Of a stretch of DNA of 64,000 bases, positions 7,151-33,001 are shown piece by piece. Location: NCBI GenBank assembly GCA_963728565.1, contig CAVSLC010000015.1:8546-72545 (forward strand), read 5' to 3'. The notes beneath the pieces are model-generated. The model had not been told where the DNA came from, did no database searches, and saw nothing but the letters and a program-made list of their open reading frames with translations. The stretch comes from an uncultured delta proteobacterium. GTDB lineage: Bacteria > Desulfobacterota > Binatia > UBA9968. A program made the translations under genes and the position numbers. Within the stretch, counting starts at the first letter, position 1. Each line of letters starts with the position of its first letter.

Positions 7151-7530
7151 TAACGGGGACAGACTACTTTTTTATCTACTTCCTCATTTCGCTTAGAGCG
7201 GGTCGGCCCCGTAGAGCCATCGTACTCTCTGATTGCATGAATCGGCTCAGAGACTAATGTGCGAAGCTTCAATCACAAAGTGAAAGTGATTCGGCATTAG
7301 AGAAAGCAAGCATCTTAACTGGGTGCCGCGTTTTTGCTAGCGCGAGCATGGAAAGAAAGGCTTGGTAATCTTGAGCGTGATGGAAGATAGTTGCGCGACC
7401 GTTCCCTCGGTTAATTACATGATAAACAAAACCAGCCTGTTGCGCATGCGGGATTGTCGGCATGGCAGGCCTTTATTATATAGGCGAACGTGATCACAAC
7501 GATGAAAATAGCCTGTCACCTTTAATCCCC
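7151..7530 (-). mobile_element. RAYT family A, internally deleted element with terminal inverted repeats
   Basis: YHVINRGNGR N-terminus joined to the 3' end; ends taacggggacagactacttt / aaatagcctgtcacctttaa. Confidence 0.85.
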
Positions 7531-7710
7531 GTCACTCTCGGTTTTAGTGCCATGGTGCCGCGCGATCTCATTCACCAGCTATAATGGAATATGAAAGACC
7601 GCTTGACTCCCTCCTTCTTCAGCAAGCGACACGGAAGGTTCTCGCCAGTCGTACTCTGAGCAATTTCAACTGCTCCCAGATAACCTAAGCTCTAGATATC
7701 TGCCCGGCGA

Positions 7711-12058: not shown

Positions 12059-12800
12059 TAAAGGGGACACGCTACTTCTTATCTACTTCCTCATTTTGCT
12101 GAAACCGGGTCGGCCCCATGAACGCATCGTACTCTCAGGTCCAATAGACCTGCAATCGACGTCTGCCAGTCTGGTTCTCCAAAAGGTCTTTAACGATTCA
12201 CTGACTAACGAATTGCAGCCAATTGCCGCGCTGATAGCGGTTCGTCCAAATGCGCCAGCCGGTCTGTCTCGACTTCGAAAGGACAGGGATCGGCCAGCTC
12301 GTTCCGACAGCAACTTGACTTACGGCCGATCATCTATCGACGCTGCCAAGCCTGATCTGACTGGATTCTGTAACACGTAGCGCACGACCATTAGCAAATG
12401 CTCATCGCGCTGCACTGGAAAACTTTTAAACCGGCCCTGCCAAACATGCCCGCTGCCGCCGTAATGCTTGTGATAACGCCGTACGTGACTGGTCAAGATC
12501 CCTTGCATGAATCGGCTCAGAGACTGGTGATGCGAAGCTCAATCAGAAAGTGAAAGTGATTCGGAATCAGAGAGAAAGCAAACAACTTAACTGGGTGCCG
12601 CGCTTTTGCTAGCGCGAGGATGCAAAGAAAGACTTGGTGATCTTGAGCTTGATGAAAGATAGTTACGCGACCGTTCCCTCGGTTGATCACATGATAAATA
12701 TAACCAGCCTGTTGCGCACGCGAGCTTCTTGGCATGGCAGGGCTTTATCATTTATGCGAACGTGATCACAAACGATGAAAGTCGCTTGTCCCTTAATCCC
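12059..12800 (-). mobile_element. RAYT family A element, near full length, transposase pseudogene (12083-12735)
   Basis: YHVINRGNGR, PNHFHF (HUH), GHVWQGRFKSFPV, RYVLQNPVR; frameshifts and stops; inverted repeats at both ends. Confidence 0.9.
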
Positions 12801-12835
12801 GTCAATCTCCCGATCTCCCTCGGCTGTCCTTAGAC

Positions 12836-14540: not shown

Positions 14541-14680
14541 GCCGCGCCCGTTCTCCCGGTTGATCGAATGATAAAACAAAACCTGCCTCTTGCGCGCGCG
14601 GGATTCTCGGCATGGCAGGGCTTTATCATATAGGCGAACGGGATCACAACGATGAAAGTAGCCTGTCCCCTTTAATCCCC
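14541..14680 (-). mobile_element. RAYT family A 5'-end fragment
   Basis: Shares cggcatggcagggctttatcatataggcgaacg...aagtagcctgtcccctttaatcccc with the other copies. Confidence 0.8.
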
Positions 14681-14937: not shown

Positions 14938-16022
14938 ATGAAAGAGTATATAGGAGTGGACCTGGGGAAGCACAAGGCCGTGGTGGTAAAGAAAGATCGA
15001 CAGGGAAAGACAACCAGCAAGGTTACTGTACCTGTGACTCAAGCAGCATTGGAAAGTTATTTTTCGAAGCAGGACCGTCGAAGCCAGGTGGTGGTGGAGG
15101 CCACGGGGAACTGGATGTATCTCTACGAGACCATCGAGCGCTACACACCGGAGGTCGTCTTGGCACACCCACTTAAGACCCGGGCGATTGCCGAGGCACG
15201 GATTAAGACCGACACCATTGATGCGACGACCTTAGCGGAACTGCTACGTCTAGATGGCATCCCGAAAGCGTATATACCACCTCGTGAGGTTCGTGACATT
15301 CGAGAGTTGTTGCGTTACCGGGCCTCGCTGGTATCGATACGAGTCGGTATCAAGAACAAGATTCATGCGGTGCTGACCAAGAACGGCATCGATTGCACGT
15401 TCAGTGATATTTTGGGGAAATCCTCCCGGCAGTGGCTGAAGAGTCTAGCCGTGCGTGCTTGCTATCGGCTAGAGATTGATGGGTATCTACGGATCGCGGA
15501 GGCGTTGGCGATTTCGATTGGAGAGATCACAAAAACGATAAAGGCCGAGGTAGCTGAAAACCCACAGGCTCAACTATTGATGGGTATTCCGGGTATCAGC
15601 TACTACTCGGCTCTGTTAATCCTCAGTGAGATTGGTGAGGTAGACCGTTTTCCCAATGCCAAGCGATTGTGTTCGTATGCCGGCTTGGTTCCCAGTATCT
15701 ATAGCTCGGGAAGCAAGAGCTACAGCGGATCACCAAACAGGGTTCACGGTGGCTGCGATGGATTTTGGTAGAGATCAGCATCCATGCCGCCAACGGGGAT
15801 TCGAACTTTCAGAAAGTGTACCGCAGAGTGAGTCGACGACGCGGTCCTAGCACGGCGAGAGTGGCGGTAGCGCGAAAGATCCTCACTGTCATTTACGCCA
15901 TGCTAAAGCGAAGTGAGTCGTTTAACCGTCACAGACCTCGGCAACGACTTATGGCTGTACCTGGGCGAAAAAAAGTGACCGACGTCTCTGGTCATCCTCC
16001 TGGGGTCATGGTCCCGGCCTAA
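14938..16022 (+). pseudogene. IS110 transposase/recombinase with a frameshift near 15728
   Basis: DEDD motifs GVDLG, VEATG, KTDTIDA; SSG; ITKQGSRWLRWILVE restored in the next frame. Confidence 0.88.
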
Positions 16023-21157: not shown

Positions 21158-21180
21158 CAGTTACGCTGCGGCAATAATAC

Positions 21181-21413
21181 ATCAGAGAGAAAGCAAACAT
21201 CTTAACTGGGTACCGCGCTTTGCTAGCGCACGGATGGAAAGAAAGGCTTGGTAATCTTGAGCTTCAAAAGGTCGTTCTGCGACCGTTCCTCGGTTGATCA
21301 CATGATAAACAAAACCAGCCTGTTGCGCATGCGGGATTCTCGGCAGGGCAGGGCTTTATCAAATAGACGCACGTGATCACAAACGAGAAAAGTAGCCTGT
21401 CCCCTTTAATCCC
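21181..21413 (-). mobile_element. RAYT family A 5'-end fragment
   Basis: Closely matches the other copies; ends aaaagtagcctgtcccctttaatccc. Confidence 0.85.
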
Positions 21414-21483
21414 GGTGGAAGTGATGGAGCCGGACGCGCGGCTTTGTTTTCCTTTGGACGGGCCATCGTTCATCTTAACGGGC

Positions 21484-22494
21484 TTATTCCCGTTTCTCCC
21501 ACCGTGCGATCAAGCCCAGCAAATCGCAGACGCGATTGGAGTATCCCCATTCATTGTCGTACCAACTGAGACACTTTAGATATCTACCGCCCGTAACGCT
21601 GGTAAATGCCGGGTCGAAAATAGAGGAGTGCGAATTCCCTATGACGTCGGATGATACGACGGGTGTTTCCATGAGTTGCAAAATGCCTTTCATCCGTTTC
21701 GAGTCCGCCGCGGATTTTATCGCGCCATGAACGTCCTCGGCACTAATACGTTTCTGGAGCTCGACGAACAAGTCGACCACGGAGCCATCGGGTACCGGTA
21801 CCCGCGCGGCGATTCCGTCCAGCCGTCCTTTCAATTCAGGCAAGACCTCGCCCACCGCCTTGGCCGCTCCGGTGGATGTCGGTATGATATTTTCCGCCGC
21901 GGCGCGGCTCCGCCGCCAATCCGAGTGCGGCACGTCGGCGAGGCGCTGATCGTTGGTGTAGGCGTGCACGGTATTGATGATTCCTTCCACGATACCGAAA
22001 GAATCGTGGAGCACCTTGGCCAGCGGCGCAAGACAATTCGTGGTGCAGCTCGCGTTAGAAATCATCCTGTGCTCGGGCTTGAGCCCGTCATCGTTGACGC
22101 CGATTACGACGGTATAATCGATCTCATCCTTCGCCGGAACGGTCAGCACCACTCGCTTGGCTCCCGCATCCAGATGCTTGGCAAGTTGTTCCCTGCTAGT
22201 GAATATTCCCGTCGATTCGATGACGACATCGATGTCGATCTCGCGCCAGGGCAGTTTGAGCGGGTCCTTTTCACGAAGCATGCGCGTCCGACCGTGCGAT
22301 GTCACCAGTTCATTGCCTTCGAGTCGCAGGGCGCCCTCAAAACGACCCATTACGGTGTCATAGTTGAGCAAGTATCGCAGCGCGTCATGGTCGAAGAGGT
22401 CATTGATCGCAACCAGTTCGGCGTCCGCCCGCTTATCGAGAATGCGGAACACAGAACGGCCGATTCGACCGAATCCATTAATGGCAACTCTCAT
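21484..22494 (-). CDS. gap: Type I glyceraldehyde-3-phosphate dehydrogenase
   Basis: INGFGRIGR, SNASCTTNCLAP, WYDNEWGYSNR. Confidence 0.95.
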   Translation of the reverse strand: MRVAINGFGRIGRSVFRILDKRADAELVAINDLFDHDALRYLLNYDTVMGRFEGALRLEGNELVTSHGRTRMLREKDPLKLPWREIDIDVVIESTGIFTSREQLAKHLDAGAKRVVLTVPAKDEIDYTVVIGVNDDGLKPEHRMISNASCTTNCLAPLAKVLHDSFGIVEGIINTVHAYTNDQRLADVPHSDWRRSRAAAENIIPTSTGAAKAVGEVLPELKGRLDGIAARVPVPDGSVVDLFVELQKRISAEDVHGAIKSAADSKRMKGILQLMETPVVSSDVIGNSHSSIFDPAFTSVTGGRYLKCLSWYDNEWGYSNRVCDLLGLIARWEKRE

Positions 22495-23510
22495 CGCCCA
22501 CCTCCGATCGTATCGAGGGTGCTGTAGTGCCGGACCACTTCGAGCACGCGGCACGCATGCCCCAGGCTCTCATACCAGGCCAGCACTTTGATTATTCTTT
22601 TTCCTGCTTTAATGGTGGCGAGCGAATCGAAGAGCAAGGATTGCCGGCAACCGATGACATCCGAAGAAACAATCGGATCATCGGTCACGCCGATCAACGT
22701 CGGATGATCGGCAGCGGCGGCGCGCATAGCTCCGCTCACTTGCTCGGCCGTGACGGTGCCAGCCTGCATGACGCAGTTAACATCGAGCAATGATCCGCGT
22801 TGGACCGGCACGTTAAGGGCGTAACCGCTCAACTTTCCCTCAAACTTGGGCAGAACAAGCTCCACCCATCGCGCGGACTCATTGTTGTTGGGGATGATAT
22901 TCTCCGCCGCGGACCGGCTGCGCCGGAAATCTTTGTGTGCATAATTCTGCAGCGACTGATCGCTACTATAGGCGTGGACCGTCGTCATCGATGCGCAGTC
23001 GACTCCTAAGGCCTGATCCAGAGATTGCAATAAAAGCGCAAATGCATTGGTGGTCGCGGAACCGGCCGAAATCATTTTGTCCGCGGCGGCGGCGCTCCCT
23101 TCATTGATTCCCGGTACTACGATACGGTCGATTGATTCCGCCGGCAGCGACGCCAGAATGACCCGCGGGGCACCGGCGCGCAGATGGGCCTCCATGTCCC
23201 GACGACTCTTATATCTGCCTGTGGCATCGACGACGCAGTGGACATCCAGAACATCCCATGGAACCTCCTCCGGCCGGACAAGCTGGAGCATTCTTGTGCG
23301 GAACTTCTCGTTGATCAGGTAATTGTCCTGGAGCTCGCAGGGCGCCTCGTCCACGCCGTCGCTATTGAGCAGATACTGAATGATTTCAGGTTTGCCGATA
23401 TCGGCCACCGCGACGATTTCGATATCATCTATTTCCCGCGCAAGGTGATACAGATGCCGCCCAATTTGGCCCAATCCCATAATGCCGATTCGGATTTTAC
23501 CATTACGCAT
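22491..23510 (-). CDS. GAPDH-like protein lacking the catalytic Cys
   Basis: GLGQIGR; SAGSATTNA in place of SNASCTTNC; VHAY; WYE. Confidence 0.88.
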   Translation of the reverse strand: MRNGKIRIGIMGLGQIGRHLYHLAREIDDIEIVAVADIGKPEIIQYLLNSDGVDEAPCELQDNYLINEKFRTRMLQLVRPEEVPWDVLDVHCVVDATGRYKSRRDMEAHLRAGAPRVILASLPAESIDRIVVPGINEGSAAAADKMISAGSATTNAFALLLQSLDQALGVDCASMTTVHAYSSDQSLQNYAHKDFRRSRSAAENIIPNNNESARWVELVLPKFEGKLSGYALNVPVQRGSLLDVNCVMQAGTVTAEQVSGAMRAAAADHPTLIGVTDDPIVSSDVIGCRQSLLFDSLATIKAGKRIIKVLAWYESLGHACRVLEVVRHYSTLDTIGGGR

Positions 23511-23632
23511 TTGGCCGCCTCCGTTTCCGCAAAATTAAGCGCTCGAAGTTGGCGTTATCCATAGCCGAGAACTCTAACAACCGATCAACCAAAAGAAAAT
23601 GCTTTTCTGAGGAAATCGTCAAACTGGAGGTG

Positions 23633-23950
23633 TAAAGGGGAGAGGCTACTTTTTATCTACTTCCTCATTTCGCTGAGACTGGTGATGCGAAGCTTCAATC
23701 AGAAAGTGCAAGTGATTCGGCATCAGAGCGAAAGCAAACATCTTAACTGGGTGCCGCGCTTTGCTAGCGCGAGGATGGAAAGAAAGACTTGGTAATCTTG
23801 AGCTTTATCAGAGATAGTTGCACGACCGTTACCTCGATTGATCACATGATAAATGAAACCAGCCTGTTGCGCACGTCGGCATGGCAGGGCTTTCATACAG
23901 GCGAACGTGATCACAGACGATGAAAGTAGCCTATCCCCTTTAATCCCCCC
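23633..23950 (-). mobile_element. RAYT family A miniature element (both ends, internal deletion)
   Basis: taaaggggagaggctactttt ... aagtagcctatcccctttaa. Confidence 0.85.
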
Positions 23951-24170
23951 GATTTGAACATGGTTCGCGCCCGAGTGGTTACGCATCCCTGTGATTGGAC
24001 ACACAGCGGCGCATCGCGAAGTCATTGAAAGTGGCGGTACATATGAGCTCCGGGAGCAGACTCAAAGTTATGGGTCCAATTTCGGCGGTTAAATGAGGTG
24101 CTAAGCTTGGATATACTAGCTTCTGGAACGAAGATTTAAACCTAGTGCAACTTAGGCTTGGTCCGACCCC
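23951..24170 (+). mobile_element. RAYT family C deleted fragment with an intact cttggtccgacccc end
   Basis: Matches 26399-26451 joined to ~26687-26850. Confidence 0.75.
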
Positions 24171-24289: not shown

Positions 24290-25759
24290 TTACCGTATGA
24301 ACCCTAACAGTCTCCAATAAGGAACACTGACGCCTAACGCTAAAAAGTTCGCAGCGCATCGTACCACCATGAGTTTCCGAGCTTGCGCATGTGAAAACGC
24401 ATTGCCGTCTGTACTGTAAAAGGCGATTTGATAAGCATCGTTCTGAGATAGAAGAAACCAGCTCTCATTTGCCATAAGGATGGTGATTAGAAGAATTCCG
24501 GGATGCACCCCCAGCTCCTGCCCCCAAGAACTTAGCCCGAGAGTGGATAAGAGAATAACGGTTGGTGTTTTACCGAGAAAGAAACGAATGAAGTACACGG
24601 CTACTGAAACAACCGTCAGAAAAGCCAAAGGACCCAACGCCACATAAGAAAAGTATGGACCGATAGATGCCATGAGCCACTGATCGATTTTTAGATGACG
24701 CATGATGCCGTCGAAACTCGAAATCACACCTAAGAAAAAGAGGAAACCCCAATCTATTCTGGCTTTGAAATCGTCTTTTTCGAGTACTCTGGTTAGAAGG
24801 AAAACTGAGAGCGCGCCCAACGCAACCCATGTCTCGCTCAATCCATGCATTGGCTTTGATAACCACCCGACAAGCGCGAACATCAGTATTCCGAGACTAA
24901 GCCGTTCATTACGGGTTAATGATTTCGGCCTATCGAGAGGATGATCTGGTTGTTTCACTTGGCTAGACCGTGAAATGACTTCGGTCGGGAACAGGTAGTG
25001 TACTCCGAGGAGTAGGCATCCCAGTGTAACGACTCCCGCCGGAAGCGCGGCCACAGCCCAAGTCGTCCAGCCAAAATCCAATTTGGCTGCTTGCGGAAGT
25101 AAGTTCCATCCGATCAAGCAGGAGGTCGCTCCTGTAAGGAACATAAATGCACATTGGGTAAAACCGACATACGCTGAGAGGCCTATTCCCGCCGAGCCGT
25201 TCGAGCGCCTTTCAAATCCCATTGTTTCCGAGATCGTTCTACTGAGAGGTGCTGCTATCGCCATACGAGCCTTACTCGTTGGCATCACCGGGGTAACTAT
25301 GAGACCAGATATGGTGAGTAACCAGGTGTACATCCGGTAATTAGGCGAGATCCGGCGCAGAGTTTCTAAAGCTATACTATGAAACAGCCCAGATTTGTTG
25401 ACGGCAACAGCGATCCCAAGAACTGCAACAACAAAGCACCATGACGTCTTGGAGAACCCGGCCAGCGCTACTTCTGAGGGCACGGCATCCGAAACTACCC
25501 AAAAAAGCAACATCAATATGCCGACAAGATACTCGTCGTATACGTTGAACATGAGAAGCAGCGTTCCGGCGGTAAGACTACCGAGAAAATAGAGTCCGCT
25601 CGCATCCAGGAGGGCGGGGGTCGGAAGCTGCATGACTAGCCAACCCATCGTCAAAGCGATCATCAGGCCAATAAGTTTTCCATCAAATATCTGCGCCGCG
25701 TTCCGTGCTGACCACAACGAGTCCGTTATCGGCTGGAGAGTCTGGCTGCGATTCATCAA
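24290..25759 (-). CDS. SLC13/DASS family anion transporter
   Basis: Many hydrophobic segments; LAGFS, PTSKAR, FLTG, IDWGFL, PYWRLLGFI. Confidence 0.85.
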   Translation of the reverse strand: MMNRSQTLQPITDSLWSARNAAQIFDGKLIGLMIALTMGWLVMQLPTPALLDASGLYFLGSLTAGTLLLMFNVYDEYLVGILMLLFWVVSDAVPSEVALAGFSKTSWCFVVAVLGIAVAVNKSGLFHSIALETLRRISPNYRMYTWLLTISGLIVTPVMPTSKARMAIAAPLSRTISETMGFERRSNGSAGIGLSAYVGFTQCAFMFLTGATSCLIGWNLLPQAAKLDFGWTTWAVAALPAGVVTLGCLLLGVHYLFPTEVISRSSQVKQPDHPLDRPKSLTRNERLSLGILMFALVGWLSKPMHGLSETWVALGALSVFLLTRVLEKDDFKARIDWGFLFFLGVISSFDGIMRHLKIDQWLMASIGPYFSYVALGPLAFLTVVSVAVYFIRFFLGKTPTVILLSTLGLSSWGQELGVHPGILLITILMANESWFLLSQNDAYQIAFYSTDGNAFSHAQARKLMVVRCAANFLALGVSVPYWRLLGFIR

Positions 25760-26314: not shown

Positions 26315-26850
26315 TTCGTCACGGCGCATTTTGGAGACCGCTATCATGCCACGGCCATCGAGATTAACGAGCAACTTCAACATTGTCTCGTTTACATCGA
26401 TTTGAATATAGTTCGCGCCGGAGTCGTTACGCATCCCTGTAATTGGACACACGCGGGTTATCGAGAGATGCAGAAACCCCCCGAAGCGCTACGGGATTAT
26501 CGATCTACCGGAGTTAAGTTCGCTATGTGGATTCGGCGACGTTGCAACATTTCAGCAAGCACATCGTCGGTGGGTAGATGATTCACTCGCGCGCGAGGCG
26601 ATGGCAAGAGAAGGTGCGTGGTCAGAAGCGATTGCGGTCGGCAATTTGAATTTTGTTGATAAGGTGCAGAACGAACTCGGATACAAAGCGGCACACCGCG
26701 AAGTCATTGAAAGTGGCGGTACATATGAGCTCCGGGAGCAGACTGAAAGTTATGGGTCCAATTTTAGCGGTCAAAATGAGGTGCTAAGCTCGGAGAACAC
26801 TAGATTTTGGAACGAAAGTTCCGAAGTTACTGCAACTTAGCTTGGTCCGA
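26315..26850 (+). pseudogene. RAYT family C transposase, 3' half
   Basis: AFW..RYHATAIE, CLVYIDLNIVRAGVVTHP..W, WSEAIAVG. Confidence 0.8.
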
Positions 26851-26928: not shown

Positions 26929-27945
26929 ATGAAATTGTACGGAGCTATTGATTTGCATTCCAACAACAACGTGACGGTGGTGATCAACGAGCAAGATCAA
27001 GTGTTGTATCAGAAGCGCTTGCCCAACGATCTTTCGTTGATCGCGCAGCAACTCTCGAGCTATCGCAGATCGCTACAGGGAATCGTGGTGGAGTCTACCT
27101 ATAACTGGTACTGGCTGGTCGATGGACTGATGGAGAAGGGCCATCAAGTTCATCTGGCCAACACCGCGGCGATCCAGCAATACAATGGGCTGAAGTACAC
27201 CGATGACCACAGCGACGCGCGGTGGCTGGCCCATCTGCTGCGGCTAGGGGTCTTACCCGAGGGCTACATTTATCCCAAGGAAGAGCGAGCGGTGCGTGAT
27301 TTGTTGCGCAAGCGCGGCCAGCTCGTGCATCAGAGGACGGCTAATCTTCTCAGTATCCAGAGTCTAATCAGCCGGACCACGGGAAACTCGATCGGCACCC
27401 AGTACATCAAAGCGCTCAATATCGAACATCTGGATGGAGTCTTACCTAACCCGGATCACATCCTTGCACTCAAAGCCAATCTGGCAGTCATGAAAAGCGC
27501 TGATGCCCAGATCGAGATCTTGGAAAAAGCCGTCCAGGACCGAGTCAAGCTACGACCTCAGTTCGGATTTCTAAAGACGGTACCCGGAATCGGGCCGATC
27601 CTGGCGCTGACGATCATGCTCGAGACCGGAGAGATCGAGAGATTTGCCTGTGTCGGCAATTACGCTTCGTACTGTCGCTGTGTGGGGAGCCAGAAGATCA
27701 GCAACGGCAAACGTAAAGGAATCGGCAATACCAAAAACGGCAACAAGTATTTGGCCTGGGCGTTTGTAGAGGCTGCCAATTTTGCGATCCGGTTTAATTC
27801 GAAGATCAAAGGCTTCTATCAGAAAAAGAAATCTAAGAGCAATGGGATTGTGGCAATCAAAGCGGTGGCCCACAAGCTCTGCCGGGCTTGCTACTACATT
27901 ATCAAAGATCAGGTGGCTTTTGATCTCACCAAAGCGTTTGCTTAG
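26929..27945 (+). CDS. IS110 transposase/recombinase, intact
   Basis: AIDLH, VVEST, TDDHSDA, VPGIG, SNG, NKYLAWAFVEAA. Confidence 0.93.
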   Translation: MKLYGAIDLHSNNNVTVVINEQDQVLYQKRLPNDLSLIAQQLSSYRRSLQGIVVESTYNWYWLVDGLMEKGHQVHLANTAAIQQYNGLKYTDDHSDARWLAHLLRLGVLPEGYIYPKEERAVRDLLRKRGQLVHQRTANLLSIQSLISRTTGNSIGTQYIKALNIEHLDGVLPNPDHILALKANLAVMKSADAQIEILEKAVQDRVKLRPQFGFLKTVPGIGPILALTIMLETGEIERFACVGNYASYCRCVGSQKISNGKRKGIGNTKNGNKYLAWAFVEAANFAIRFNSKIKGFYQKKKSKSNGIVAIKAVAHKLCRACYYIIKDQVAFDLTKAFA

Positions 27946-30184: not shown

Positions 30185-30457
30185 TTGCATGAATCGGCTC
30201 AGAGACTGGTGATGCGAAGCTTCAATTACAAAGTGAAAGTGATTCGGCATCAGAGCGAAGCAAACCTTAACTGGGTGCCGCGCTTTGCTAGCGCGAGGAT
30301 GGAAAGAAAGGCTTGGTAATCTTGAGCTTTATGAAAGATAGTTGCGCCGACCGACCGTGATTGATCACATGATAAACAAAACCAGCCTGTTGCGCGCGCG
30401 GATTCTCGGCATGACAGGGGCTTTATCATATAGGCGAACGGGATCACAAACGATGAA
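30185..30457 (-). mobile_element. RAYT family A 5' fragment
   Basis: ATIFHKAQDYQAFLSILALAK; closely matches the other copies. Confidence 0.85.
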
Positions 30458-32315: not shown

Positions 32316-32474
32316 TCACGGCTTTTCGGCGACGACTTTCCCGTTCTCCCAGATATAGATCGGCGTGCCATGCATGCGTGCGGTCTTGCGGGCGACCTTG
32401 GCGGCGCGGCGAAGGGCGCGGCCGACGGCGGCAGAGAATTCCTTACTTGTTTGTAGTTTGGCTTTTGGCTTCAT
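32316..32474 (-). CDS. Small basic partner of the zeta-like ATPase (52 aa, not in the ORF track)
   Basis: MKPKAK...RRAAKVARKTARMHGTPIYIWENGKVVAEKP; ATGA overlap with the ATPase. Confidence 0.7.
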   Translation of the reverse strand: MKPKAKLQTSKEFSAAVGRALRRAAKVARKTARMHGTPIYIWENGKVVAEKP

Positions 32475-33001
32475 GGCGACCTTTCCAACAATACTGGATT
32501 CCGACCGGAGTTATCATACACACTCCACCTATCCGCTAAAAGCCGGTAGTGATGCTCGAAATTATCGCGGCTGCGCGTGAAGCGGCGCAGAACATCCCTT
32601 CGCGGGACGTTGTGACCACCTTGTTTGACCCGGGCCGCAATACGACGCAGCGCGAGCTGCGGCGACGAGATGCGCAAATAGACGATTTCAATTCGCCGGC
32701 CGGCAGCTTTCCAACGCTTTAATCTACTTAGATAATTGAGGCCACTCAACGTGCTCTCGAAGGCAAAATCACTTCCCGCGTCGGCAAGCCGATCGAGTTC
32801 TTGGAGAAACAAGCGTCCGGCGGCAAACGCGGCCAATTCCGGTCGCAATGGGGAGAGCCCAGTGGCGATTAAATCCGGATTGACGAAATGGATTACAGCC
32901 GCCTCCTTGGCCAAGAACTCACGCGCAAAGGTGGTCTTTCCTGCTCCGTTGGGTCCCGCAATGATGATGCATCTTGGAGATAAAAGCCCCTGTTTATTCA
33001 T
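32471..33001 (-). CDS. Zeta-toxin-like P-loop ATPase/kinase
   Basis: AGPNGAGKTT, FVNPD, FESTLSG, RVKQGGH, YDNS. Confidence 0.88.
   Translation of the reverse strand: MNKQGLLSPRCIIIAGPNGAGKTTFAREFLAKEAAVIHFVNPDLIATGLSPLRPELAAFAAGRLFLQELDRLADAGSDFAFESTLSGLNYLSRLKRWKAAGRRIEIVYLRISSPQLALRRIAARVKQGGHNVPRRDVLRRFTRSRDNFEHHYRLLADRWSVYDNSGRNPVLLERSP

Follow-up and report, generated by a model that had tools for sequence, protein, structure and literature searches.

Glyceraldehyde-3-phosphate dehydrogenase (GAPDH) ranks with the best-studied enzymes, and its bacterial form is regarded as a homotetramer. In the plant A2B2 form of the enzyme, regulation is provided by a C-terminal extension of the GapB subunit. 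This chloroplast GAPDH of land plants is described as a heterotetramer of two paralogous subunits, GapA and GapB (10.1101/2021.11.21.469434; PMC11025378). The present work concerns a pair of GAPDH-family genes in a 64,000-nt stretch of the genome of an uncultured delta proteobacterium of the class Binatia (assembly GCA_963728565.1, contig CAVSLC010000015.1, positions 8,546 to 72,545; this whole stretch is referred to as the window). The downstream gene codes for a canonical type I GAPDH (P0002, the partner), and the upstream gene codes for a paralog lacking the nucleophilic cysteine (P0001, the Cys-less protein). Together they probably represent an undescribed two-protein form of GAPDH. Whereas both subunits of the chloroplast A2B2 enzyme are catalytic, one of the two proteins encoded here appears to be catalytically dead, and no extension is present (339 vs 336 amino acids).

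The combination of a catalytically dead paralog with an active enzyme in one working complex is described for the prozyme of trypanosomatid AdoMetDC (PMC6221367). As expected of a prozyme-like pseudoenzyme subunit, the Cys-less protein has lost catalytic residues while under purifying selection and constantly co-occurs, also in RNA contigs, with an active paralog. It differs from the AdoMetDC prozyme in fold and domain of life, and activation by the dead subunit is shown for the prozyme only. In NAD-isocitrate dehydrogenase and plant PPi-phosphofructokinase, both hetero-oligomeric enzymes of central metabolism, the former active site of one paralog has turned allosteric; the resemblance to the Cys-less GAPDH copy is one of principle only.

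An engineered Cys-to-Ala mutant of G. stearothermophilus GAPDH is reportedly a tetramer that binds NAD and substrate without reacting. Its structures (PDB 1npt/1nqa) carry the same Ala at the nucleophile position, with ISNASATTNC in the alignment, and the fact that it was crystallised indicates that the substitution is compatible with the fold. This is, however, a laboratory point mutant of an otherwise intact enzyme, whereas P0001 is natural, under selection, has lost the phosphate sites and has a separate active partner. No solved structure of the natural Cys-less type was found, the nearest being the mutant 1npt. Full-text searches, with subscription journals outside their range, yielded no description of a Cys-less GAPDH subunit, and none is given in passages of a 2025 review of the GAPDH-like superfamily (PMC12041015).

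Catalytic residues and constraint in the upstream copy

The two genes are arranged head to tail on the minus strand, with the gene for the Cys-less protein preceding that for its partner (Table 1). The true start of the partner is the ATG at position 22494; the 356-aa open reading frame (ORF) beginning with GTG in the mechanical ORF list is an upstream extension of it. The proteins share 39% identity (128/328, E 3e-74). Both comprise the Pfam domains Gp_dh_N (PF00044) and Gp_dh_C (PF02800), matched by P0001 at 1.3e-15 and 3.4e-38, respectively. P0002 passes the type I GAPDH equivalog model TIGR01534 with 421.1 bits against a cut-off of 367.2, while P0001 fails it (246.2 bits) and is above the cut-off of no other NCBIfam model. 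Both proteins score below the cut-offs of the models for erythrose-4-phosphate dehydrogenase (TIGR01532, cut-off 530.6; P0001 176, P0002 332) and ArsJ-associated GAPDH (NF033735, cut-off 450; 182 and 335).

The initial annotation had described a 339-aa GAPDH-like ORF carrying SAGSATTNA in place of SNASCTTNC and WYES at the site of WYDNE, with the Rossmann motif, the active-site His and the S-loop kept, overlapping gap by ATGA and with no pgk or tpi beside the pair. Re-reading of the ORFs and motifs bore out each of these points: P0001 has WYES-LG opposite the WYDNEWG of the partner and retains GLGQIGR, the His of TTVHAYS and the S-loop DFRRSRSAAENIIP, in addition to the NAD-ribose-binding Asp of VADI, and its neighbours are genes for a LapA-domain protein, Hsp20, a DASS transporter and IS110 transposases. 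Three losses come on top of those described. The second Cys of the motif is replaced by Ala, like the nucleophile itself; the phosphate-site Arg is replaced by Asn (LNVPV vs ARVPV in the partner); and NNESARW stands in place of STGAAKA, with NE instead of the Pi-site Thr-Gly. Residue numbers Cys149, His176, Arg195 and Arg231 used for the canonical enzyme are those of the G. stearothermophilus protein. In comparison with type I GAPDH (GapA, EC 1.2.1.12, TIGR01534, e.g., 1gd1 of G. stearothermophilus), the Cys-less protein thus resembles it in the Pfam domains, fold, GxGxxG motif, ribose Asp, His, S-loop and dimer-interface residues, but lacks the nucleophile Cys, Arg231, the Pi-site Thr-Gly and, in its subgroup, the Asn of WYDNE. 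P0001 would be unable to form the thioacyl intermediate.

These losses are fixed. A search of 5.8 billion proteins listed 120 close homologues with 79–95% identity, the few named records among them being metagenome-assembled genomes (MAGs) of Candidatus Binatia, Deltaproteobacteria, Nitrospirota and Chloroflexota. Among the matches listed, all 120 have Ala at both Cys sites, Asn at Arg231 and N-E at Thr-Gly. A broader set comprises 34 relatives found in pairs, 36–97% identical to P0001. The Cys position is occupied by Ala in 18 of them and by Ser in 16, while Asn is found at the Arg231 site and in place of the Thr following IIP in all 34; the Thr-Gly site reads N/T/S/A plus a variable residue, and the S-loop arginines (RRSR) are kept. 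The 34 partners, in turn, are invariant in the catalytic residues C150, H177, R195, R197, T208, G209, R231 and N314.

Across the 34 paired relatives, 37 columns of the Cys-less protein are invariant down to 36% identity. They include the Rossmann positions G12, G14 and R18 and the ribose-binding D37; S148, S151, H179, Y181 and Q185 near what used to be the active site; R196, S198, R199, A201, N204, I205, I206, P207 and N208 of the S-loop, in which 12 of 30 residues are invariant; and N233, V234, P235, G239, S240, D243, V281, S282, D284, D295 and K308. The replacement residues Asn208 (for Thr) and Asn233 (for Arg) are thus themselves invariant in 34 of 34 sequences. We read this pattern of conservation as the strongest constraint lying on the interface and the S-loop, with the adenosine half of the cofactor site kept, catalysis gone and a remodelled pocket retained.

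The upstream gene is under purifying selection. Pairwise dN/dS values were calculated by the Nei-Gojobori method (NG86) for 17 close sequences, with 123 of 136 pairs usable (dS 0.05–2.5). The median is 0.117 (range 0.067–0.236) for the Cys-less copy and 0.060 (0.024–0.138) for the partner. The former thus evolves at about twice the rate of the latter, yet purifying selection on it is evident. In 696 of 703 comparisons, the Cys-less copy is the more diverged of the two. The upstream gene is open and full-length in 38 of the 39 pairs examined in full, the only frameshifted copy being that of locus L077. The initial annotation had named retention of the Cys in homologues and neutral evolution as outcomes that would speak against it; neither was observed, given the Ala or Ser residues at this site in every listed homologue and paired relative and the median dN/dS reported above.

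A two-gene module and its history

Conserved tandem pairs, for which the initial annotation had proposed a search, were found. In all 12 loci from species-representative genomes (records titled Binatia and Deltaproteobacteria, plus one Verrucomicrobia and one Syntrophobacteraceae MAG), a canonical gene is located directly downstream of the Cys-less copy. The same order occurs in two genomes of another class (G062 and G194) among 201 sampled genomes of the phylum to which the window belongs; here the upstream copy is 38–42% identical, with Ser for Cys and Asn for Arg, and the canonical gene comes next. A metagenome scan with an eight-sequence alignment returned 80 loci, 34 of which carry an unambiguous Cys-less copy. 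Three of these end at a contig edge, and in all 31 with enough downstream DNA a same-strand GAPDH gene follows, although only its first 95 and 138 residues lie on the contig in two of them. At a 35th locus (L078) the upstream copy is truncated and the gene downstream of it is canonical; the remaining 45 loci represent canonical genes that fitted the search patterns.

The junction is conserved as well. The ATGA overlap claimed by the initial annotation is read on the minus strand in the window, and the translational coupling claimed with it agrees with a 4-nt overlap in 34 of 45 related junctions; nine more lie between -1 and +2 nt, and two exceed 100 nt, one of them at L077 with its frameshifted upstream gene. 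Motifs of the GG[TA]G type occur at the equivalent place in most of the displayed junctions. Gene order and overlap are thus conserved, and the pair is an old two-gene module. Its flanks differ among loci, with no conserved neighbours; genes related to sugar metabolism and glycolysis (pyruvate kinase, class II aldolase, ROK kinase, TrmB regulators and glycoside hydrolases GH1/3/57) are found there occasionally.

Members of a marine subgroup bear the names Candidatus Marinimicrobia and Neomarinimicrobiota (P0304, P0327, P0338). The Marinimicrobia-type Cys-less copies (P0130 and about 50 profile matches) are annotated with an N-terminal extension of about 80 residues (420 vs 338 aa). At L051 the GAPDH-like part begins at an internal ATG, so that the extension may be either a gene-calling artefact or a real lineage-specific addition. 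Two apparent fusion proteins, P0273 (673 aa) and P0389 (677 aa), were rejected as natural fusions, being frameshift read-throughs with an out-of-frame stretch between two GAPDH units. These frameshifts lie in the upstream gene, as does the similar one at L077, and could represent occasional decay or assembly error.

In phylogenetic trees the paired Cys-less proteins form one clade (SH-like support 99), and the partners form a clade of their own (SH 97 in FastTree, 96 in IQ-TREE under the LG+C20 mixture model); both clades are divided into the same subgroups. Separate trees of the two genes for 35 non-identical pairs share 15 of 32 bipartitions, where 1000 label shuffles gave 0.22 on average and never more than 3, and the pairwise identities of the two genes correlate with r = 0.96. 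Across subgroups the partners are 59–70% identical to P0002, compared with 45–58% for most unpaired canonical genes of the same scan. Origin by recent tandem duplication was rejected because the Cys-less copy and its partner fall in different deep clades. As judged from the trees, the Cys-less copy is an old separate lineage, and the two genes have travelled together since before the subgroups split.

The paired Cys-less clade is enclosed in a larger "upstream-type" group (support 97 in the mixture-model tree), which also holds other Cys-less representatives, whose Cys site is taken by Asn, Val, Gly, Pro, Ala or Ser. Some members retain the Cys, namely, the upstream genes of L116 and L092, P0155, and the first half of P0389. 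At L116 (4001–6033) the upstream gene keeps Cys, His and Arg; at L092 (4–1679) it keeps Cys and His, with Asn for Arg. Cys-retaining upstream-type genes stand directly ahead of a canonical gene at L091, L092, L100 and L116, and could be living intermediates toward a dead subunit. This arrangement suggests that the tandem, and probably heteromeric, organization preceded the loss of catalysis in one subunit, and that catalysis was lost later, more than once. Tandem Cys-bearing GAPDH genes of a different kind (SSASCTTHC followed by SNASCTTNC) were observed at L023 (G028) and L029 (G067). They are each other's closest relatives, and by this phylogenetic placement they are a separate recent duplication, unrelated to the Cys-less module.

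Both genes are present in RNA libraries. Part of the stretch is contained in 20 public runs, six of which are soil metatranscriptomes; all four soil RNA runs examined, from four studies, contain near-identical contigs on both genes, and one RNA contig of 221 nt extends across the junction (22447–22667).

Possible roles of the Cys-less protein

By the residues it has lost and those it retains, it is well supported that P0001 is a conserved GAPDH paralog that would no longer be capable of GAPDH chemistry, that is, a pseudo-enzyme. The best explanation of its role appears to be that of a non-catalytic subunit of a mixed GAPDH oligomer with the partner, which we consider somewhat more likely than not on the basis of comparative evidence and the complex model. 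The upstream-type lineage is almost always encoded directly ahead of a dedicated, fully canonical GAPDH, and according to this explanation both genes would be co-transcribed and translationally coupled. The ATGA overlap and the GGAGG motif inside the end of the first gene suggest that both proteins are made in one place and in about equal amounts. They would then co-assemble into a mixed oligomer, by analogy an (alpha-beta)2 tetramer, to which the dead subunit would contribute its side of the dimer contact and an S-loop packing against the neighbour's cofactor site, and in which only the sites of the partner would turn over substrate. The conservation of the old pocket (Ser, Ser, Ala/Ser, Thr, His, Asn208, Asn233) and of the adenosine half suggests that it may have become a ligand-binding, allosteric site. 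Assembly, stoichiometry and any regulatory or stabilising effect of the Cys-less subunit are what we infer from this evidence. The interpretation given in the initial annotation, a pseudo-enzyme subunit of a heterotetrameric GAPDH that would regulate or stabilise it, is partly supported.

Structure prediction is consistent with such a role. The AlphaFold monomer model of P0001, built with 34 relatives, has a pLDDT of 87.7 and a pTM of 0.88 and matches solved GAPDHs with TM scores of 0.86–0.88; the profile of the Cys-less clade matches 1gd1 at E 6e-127, and the ESM Atlas matches were all generic GAPDH clusters. Confidence in the model is low for the S-loop alone (residues 182–203, pLDDT <50), which fits a segment ordered only in the oligomer. 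The complex of P0001 with P0002 was modelled from two 34-row alignments in three runs, with three controls. It reached an ipSAE of 0.79 (0.79, 0.80 and 0.76 in the individual runs), compared with 0.01 for the best control, a pass that may reflect the solved homotetramers; solved complexes attain the mark of the tool in 116 of 157 cases, and mismatched pairs in 2 of 215. Agreement of contacts between the runs is 100%, the pLDDT of the partner is at least 91, and the modelled interface is the GAPDH dimer interface, including S-loop residues 195–207. Of the 37 invariant columns, 15 are among the 44 residues predicted to form the interface (odds ratio 6.4, p 6e-6 by Fisher's test). The same interface positions are conserved in ordinary GAPDH, so this enrichment points to a retained competence to oligomerise and not to a preference for the partner.

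Several observations weigh against a mixed oligomer. Binding of the Cys-less protein to its partner is a prediction of the complex model. Because GAPDH homotetramers have been solved, the pass of the model speaks of likeness and is no proof, and the model would probably pass for any two GAPDH paralogs. Adjacent genes share their history regardless of contact between their products, and co-diversification is therefore no proof of contact either. The RNA contigs can neither exclude DNA carry-over nor prove a single transcript. Half of the cofactor-contact positions have drifted, with Q/R/E/H/S at the Arg of GFGRIGR and varying surroundings of the nicotinamide, which makes NAD binding by the Cys-less subunit uncertain. 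A profile search and a search for longer proteins found no natural fusion of the two genes. Finally, the same genome has three additional canonical GAPDH genes, and the module is patchy and dispensable, having been detected in only two of the 121 genomes sampled from the class (G000 and G206, of the same family; E <= 1e-75); the pair is thus an accessory rather than a housekeeping GAPDH in this organism.

The strongest alternative, which we nevertheless regard as unlikely, is that the Cys-less protein acts alone, as a homo-oligomer with a new role and with only a functional link to the partner. The interface residues would serve a homotetramer equally well, and partners in operons are often pathway neighbours and not subunits. 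The conserved pocket, with Asn208 and Asn233 invariant in all 34 relatives, resembles a new specificity more than a mere loss, and GxGxxG and the ribose-binding Asp are retained; such a role might be to bind or sense adenine nucleotides or triose phosphates, or to catalyse a reaction through the retained His without need of a thiol. The alternation of Ala and Ser (18/16) at the nucleophile position, however, argues against any covalent chemistry common to the clade. Moreover, a dedicated co-diversifying partner clade together with the 4-nt overlap in 34 of 45 junctions is more than is usual for pathway neighbours, and the partner is missing beside the Cys-less copy in none of the 31 metagenome and 12 genome loci with enough downstream DNA.

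It is less probable still that the Cys-less protein is a transient assembly or protection factor that binds the partner only in folding or under stress, for example upon oxidation of the catalytic Cys, and is not a permanent subunit. Such a function would suit a protein that oxidants cannot inactivate, both active-site cysteines being gone, and one that is accessory in a genome with three other GAPDHs; an Hsp20 gene is also located nearby in the window. Translational coupling, on the other hand, implies roughly equal amounts of the two proteins, which is unusual for a chaperone-like factor, and the Hsp20 neighbour is not conserved at other loci. A decaying or neutral duplicate, merely surviving as a pseudogene beside gap, could account for the lost catalytic residues, the twofold evolutionary rate and the excess of divergence over the partner (696/703), but it can hardly be reconciled with a frame that is open and full-length in all pairs but L077 (38/39), a dN/dS of 0.07–0.24, 37 invariant columns among relatives as distant as 36% identity and the presence of the gene in RNA libraries.

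The mixed oligomer may be developed into a more specific proposal, which we hold tentatively and at less than even odds. The carriers (soil Binatia-like bacteria, marine Marinimicrobia/SAR406 and others) would possess a widespread, obligate two-subunit GAPDH of the (alpha-beta)2 type with hard-wired half-of-the-sites activity. As an allosteric sensor of a nucleotide or triose phosphate, the pocket of the two permanently dead sites, with the invariant Asn208 and Asn233, would tune the two that are live. L116, L092, P0155 and P0389, in which the Cys is kept, would represent the ancestral state, the heteromer having come first and the decay of one subunit later, more than once.

Genomic surroundings and implications

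The assembly comprises 4.5 Mb and is 80.6% complete with 5.8% contamination. Mis-binning of the contig was considered and is not supported, with a GC content of 0.545 and a tetranucleotide correlation of 0.994 with the remaining genome. The GC content of the pair is 0.567, compared with about 0.49–0.52 in the flanks and 0.545 in the genome, which is too weak a difference for calling horizontal transfer. A scan for promoters and terminators found no minus-strand site at the ends of the pair, with counts close to the shuffled expectation.

The assembly has five genes of the GAPDH family. Two make up the pair; the other three are canonical, lie on a different contig (C23 of G000) and form one tight clade (L018:7341–8351, L018:11691–12704 and L019:7270–8283). 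One of the three follows a phosphofructokinase gene, one is solitary and one is located beside CBS-domain genes; near the latter are also genes for a P-type ATPase with an N-terminal PTS EIIA domain and for a pair of cytochrome c552 (NrfA-like) and NapC/NirT proteins. It is unusual for a genome of 4.5 Mb to have four active gap genes.

The initial annotation had reported RAYT-A copies flanking the pair. Two copies of a repeat do bracket it (21180–21413 and 23721–23947, 84% alike), but they hold degenerate RAYT-like fragments inside a lineage-specific repeat of about 235 nt and not intact RAYT genes. At least six copies of this repeat, 80–87% alike and in one orientation, are present in the window, and within the assembly it is confined to this contig. 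The ORF fragments in the two flanking copies match no Pfam (E up to 5) or NCBIfam (E up to 0.01) model; a 133-aa homologue of the upstream one (L001:8165–8566) matches the RAYT model NF047646 at E 2e-15 with 56.9 bits, below the cut-off of 80. The repeat flanks the pair in its closest relatives L001–L004, standing directly after it in L001, L002 and L004, and is absent from L005–L012. The repeats carve the region between 7 and 31 kb into cassette-like blocks, and "goes back ~2.5 kb" joints in two RNA runs reflect the same repeat. Together with two IS110-family transposase genes, they mark the surroundings of the pair as rich in mobile elements. The DASS-family transporter gene upstream of the pair was considered as an ArsJ-like partner and rejected, since it does not accompany the pair at other loci and NF033735 is matched below its cut-off.

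Table 1. The GAPDH gene pair and other features of the window
Feature	Position	Strand	Remarks
Cys-less GAPDH-like gene, upstream member of the pair	22491..23510	-	339 aa, P0001; Gp_dh_N + Gp_dh_C
Canonical type I GAPDH gene, downstream member of the pair	21484..22494	-	336 aa, P0002; catalytic and phosphate-site residues complete
ATGA overlap of upstream stop and partner start	22491..22494	-	4 nt; plus strand reads tcat
GGAGG Shine-Dalgarno-like motif within the 3' end of the upstream gene	22501..22505	-	6 nt ahead of the partner ATG
GGAGG Shine-Dalgarno-like motif ahead of the upstream gene	23518..23522	-	7 nt from the ATG of the upstream gene
Repeat copy (~235-300 nt) just downstream of the partner	21180..21480	+	with 69-aa degenerate RAYT-like ORF fragment, 21264-21473 (-)
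Second flanking copy of this repeat, 211 nt upstream of the pair	23721..24093	+	with 100-aa degenerate RAYT-like ORF fragment, 23723-24025 (-)
Other copies of the ~235-nt repeat	~7299-7532, 12566-12801, 14544-14680, 30248-30457		partial copies 26398-26456, 26679-26775
IS110-family transposase gene	14938-15771	+	shorter, 277 aa; DEDD_Tnp_IS110 + Transposase_20
IS110-family transposase gene	26929-27945	+	DEDD_Tnp_IS110 + Transposase_20
DASS / Na-sulfate symporter family transporter gene	24290-25759	-	489 aa, TTG start; upstream of the pair, same strand
Zeta-toxin / AAA_33 kinase-like ORF	32471-33001	-	176 aa

Abundant uncultured lineages carry the module, among them some whose records bear the names Marinimicrobia and Binatia. 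Should the two proteins co-assemble, the current annotations ("type I GAPDH," "NAD-binding domain-containing protein") would have to be corrected, as would the numbers of gap genes assumed in metabolic reconstructions. The pair would then provide a natural system for studying half-of-the-sites reactivity and subunit cooperativity, and would show how a heteromer lets one of its subunits lose catalysis.

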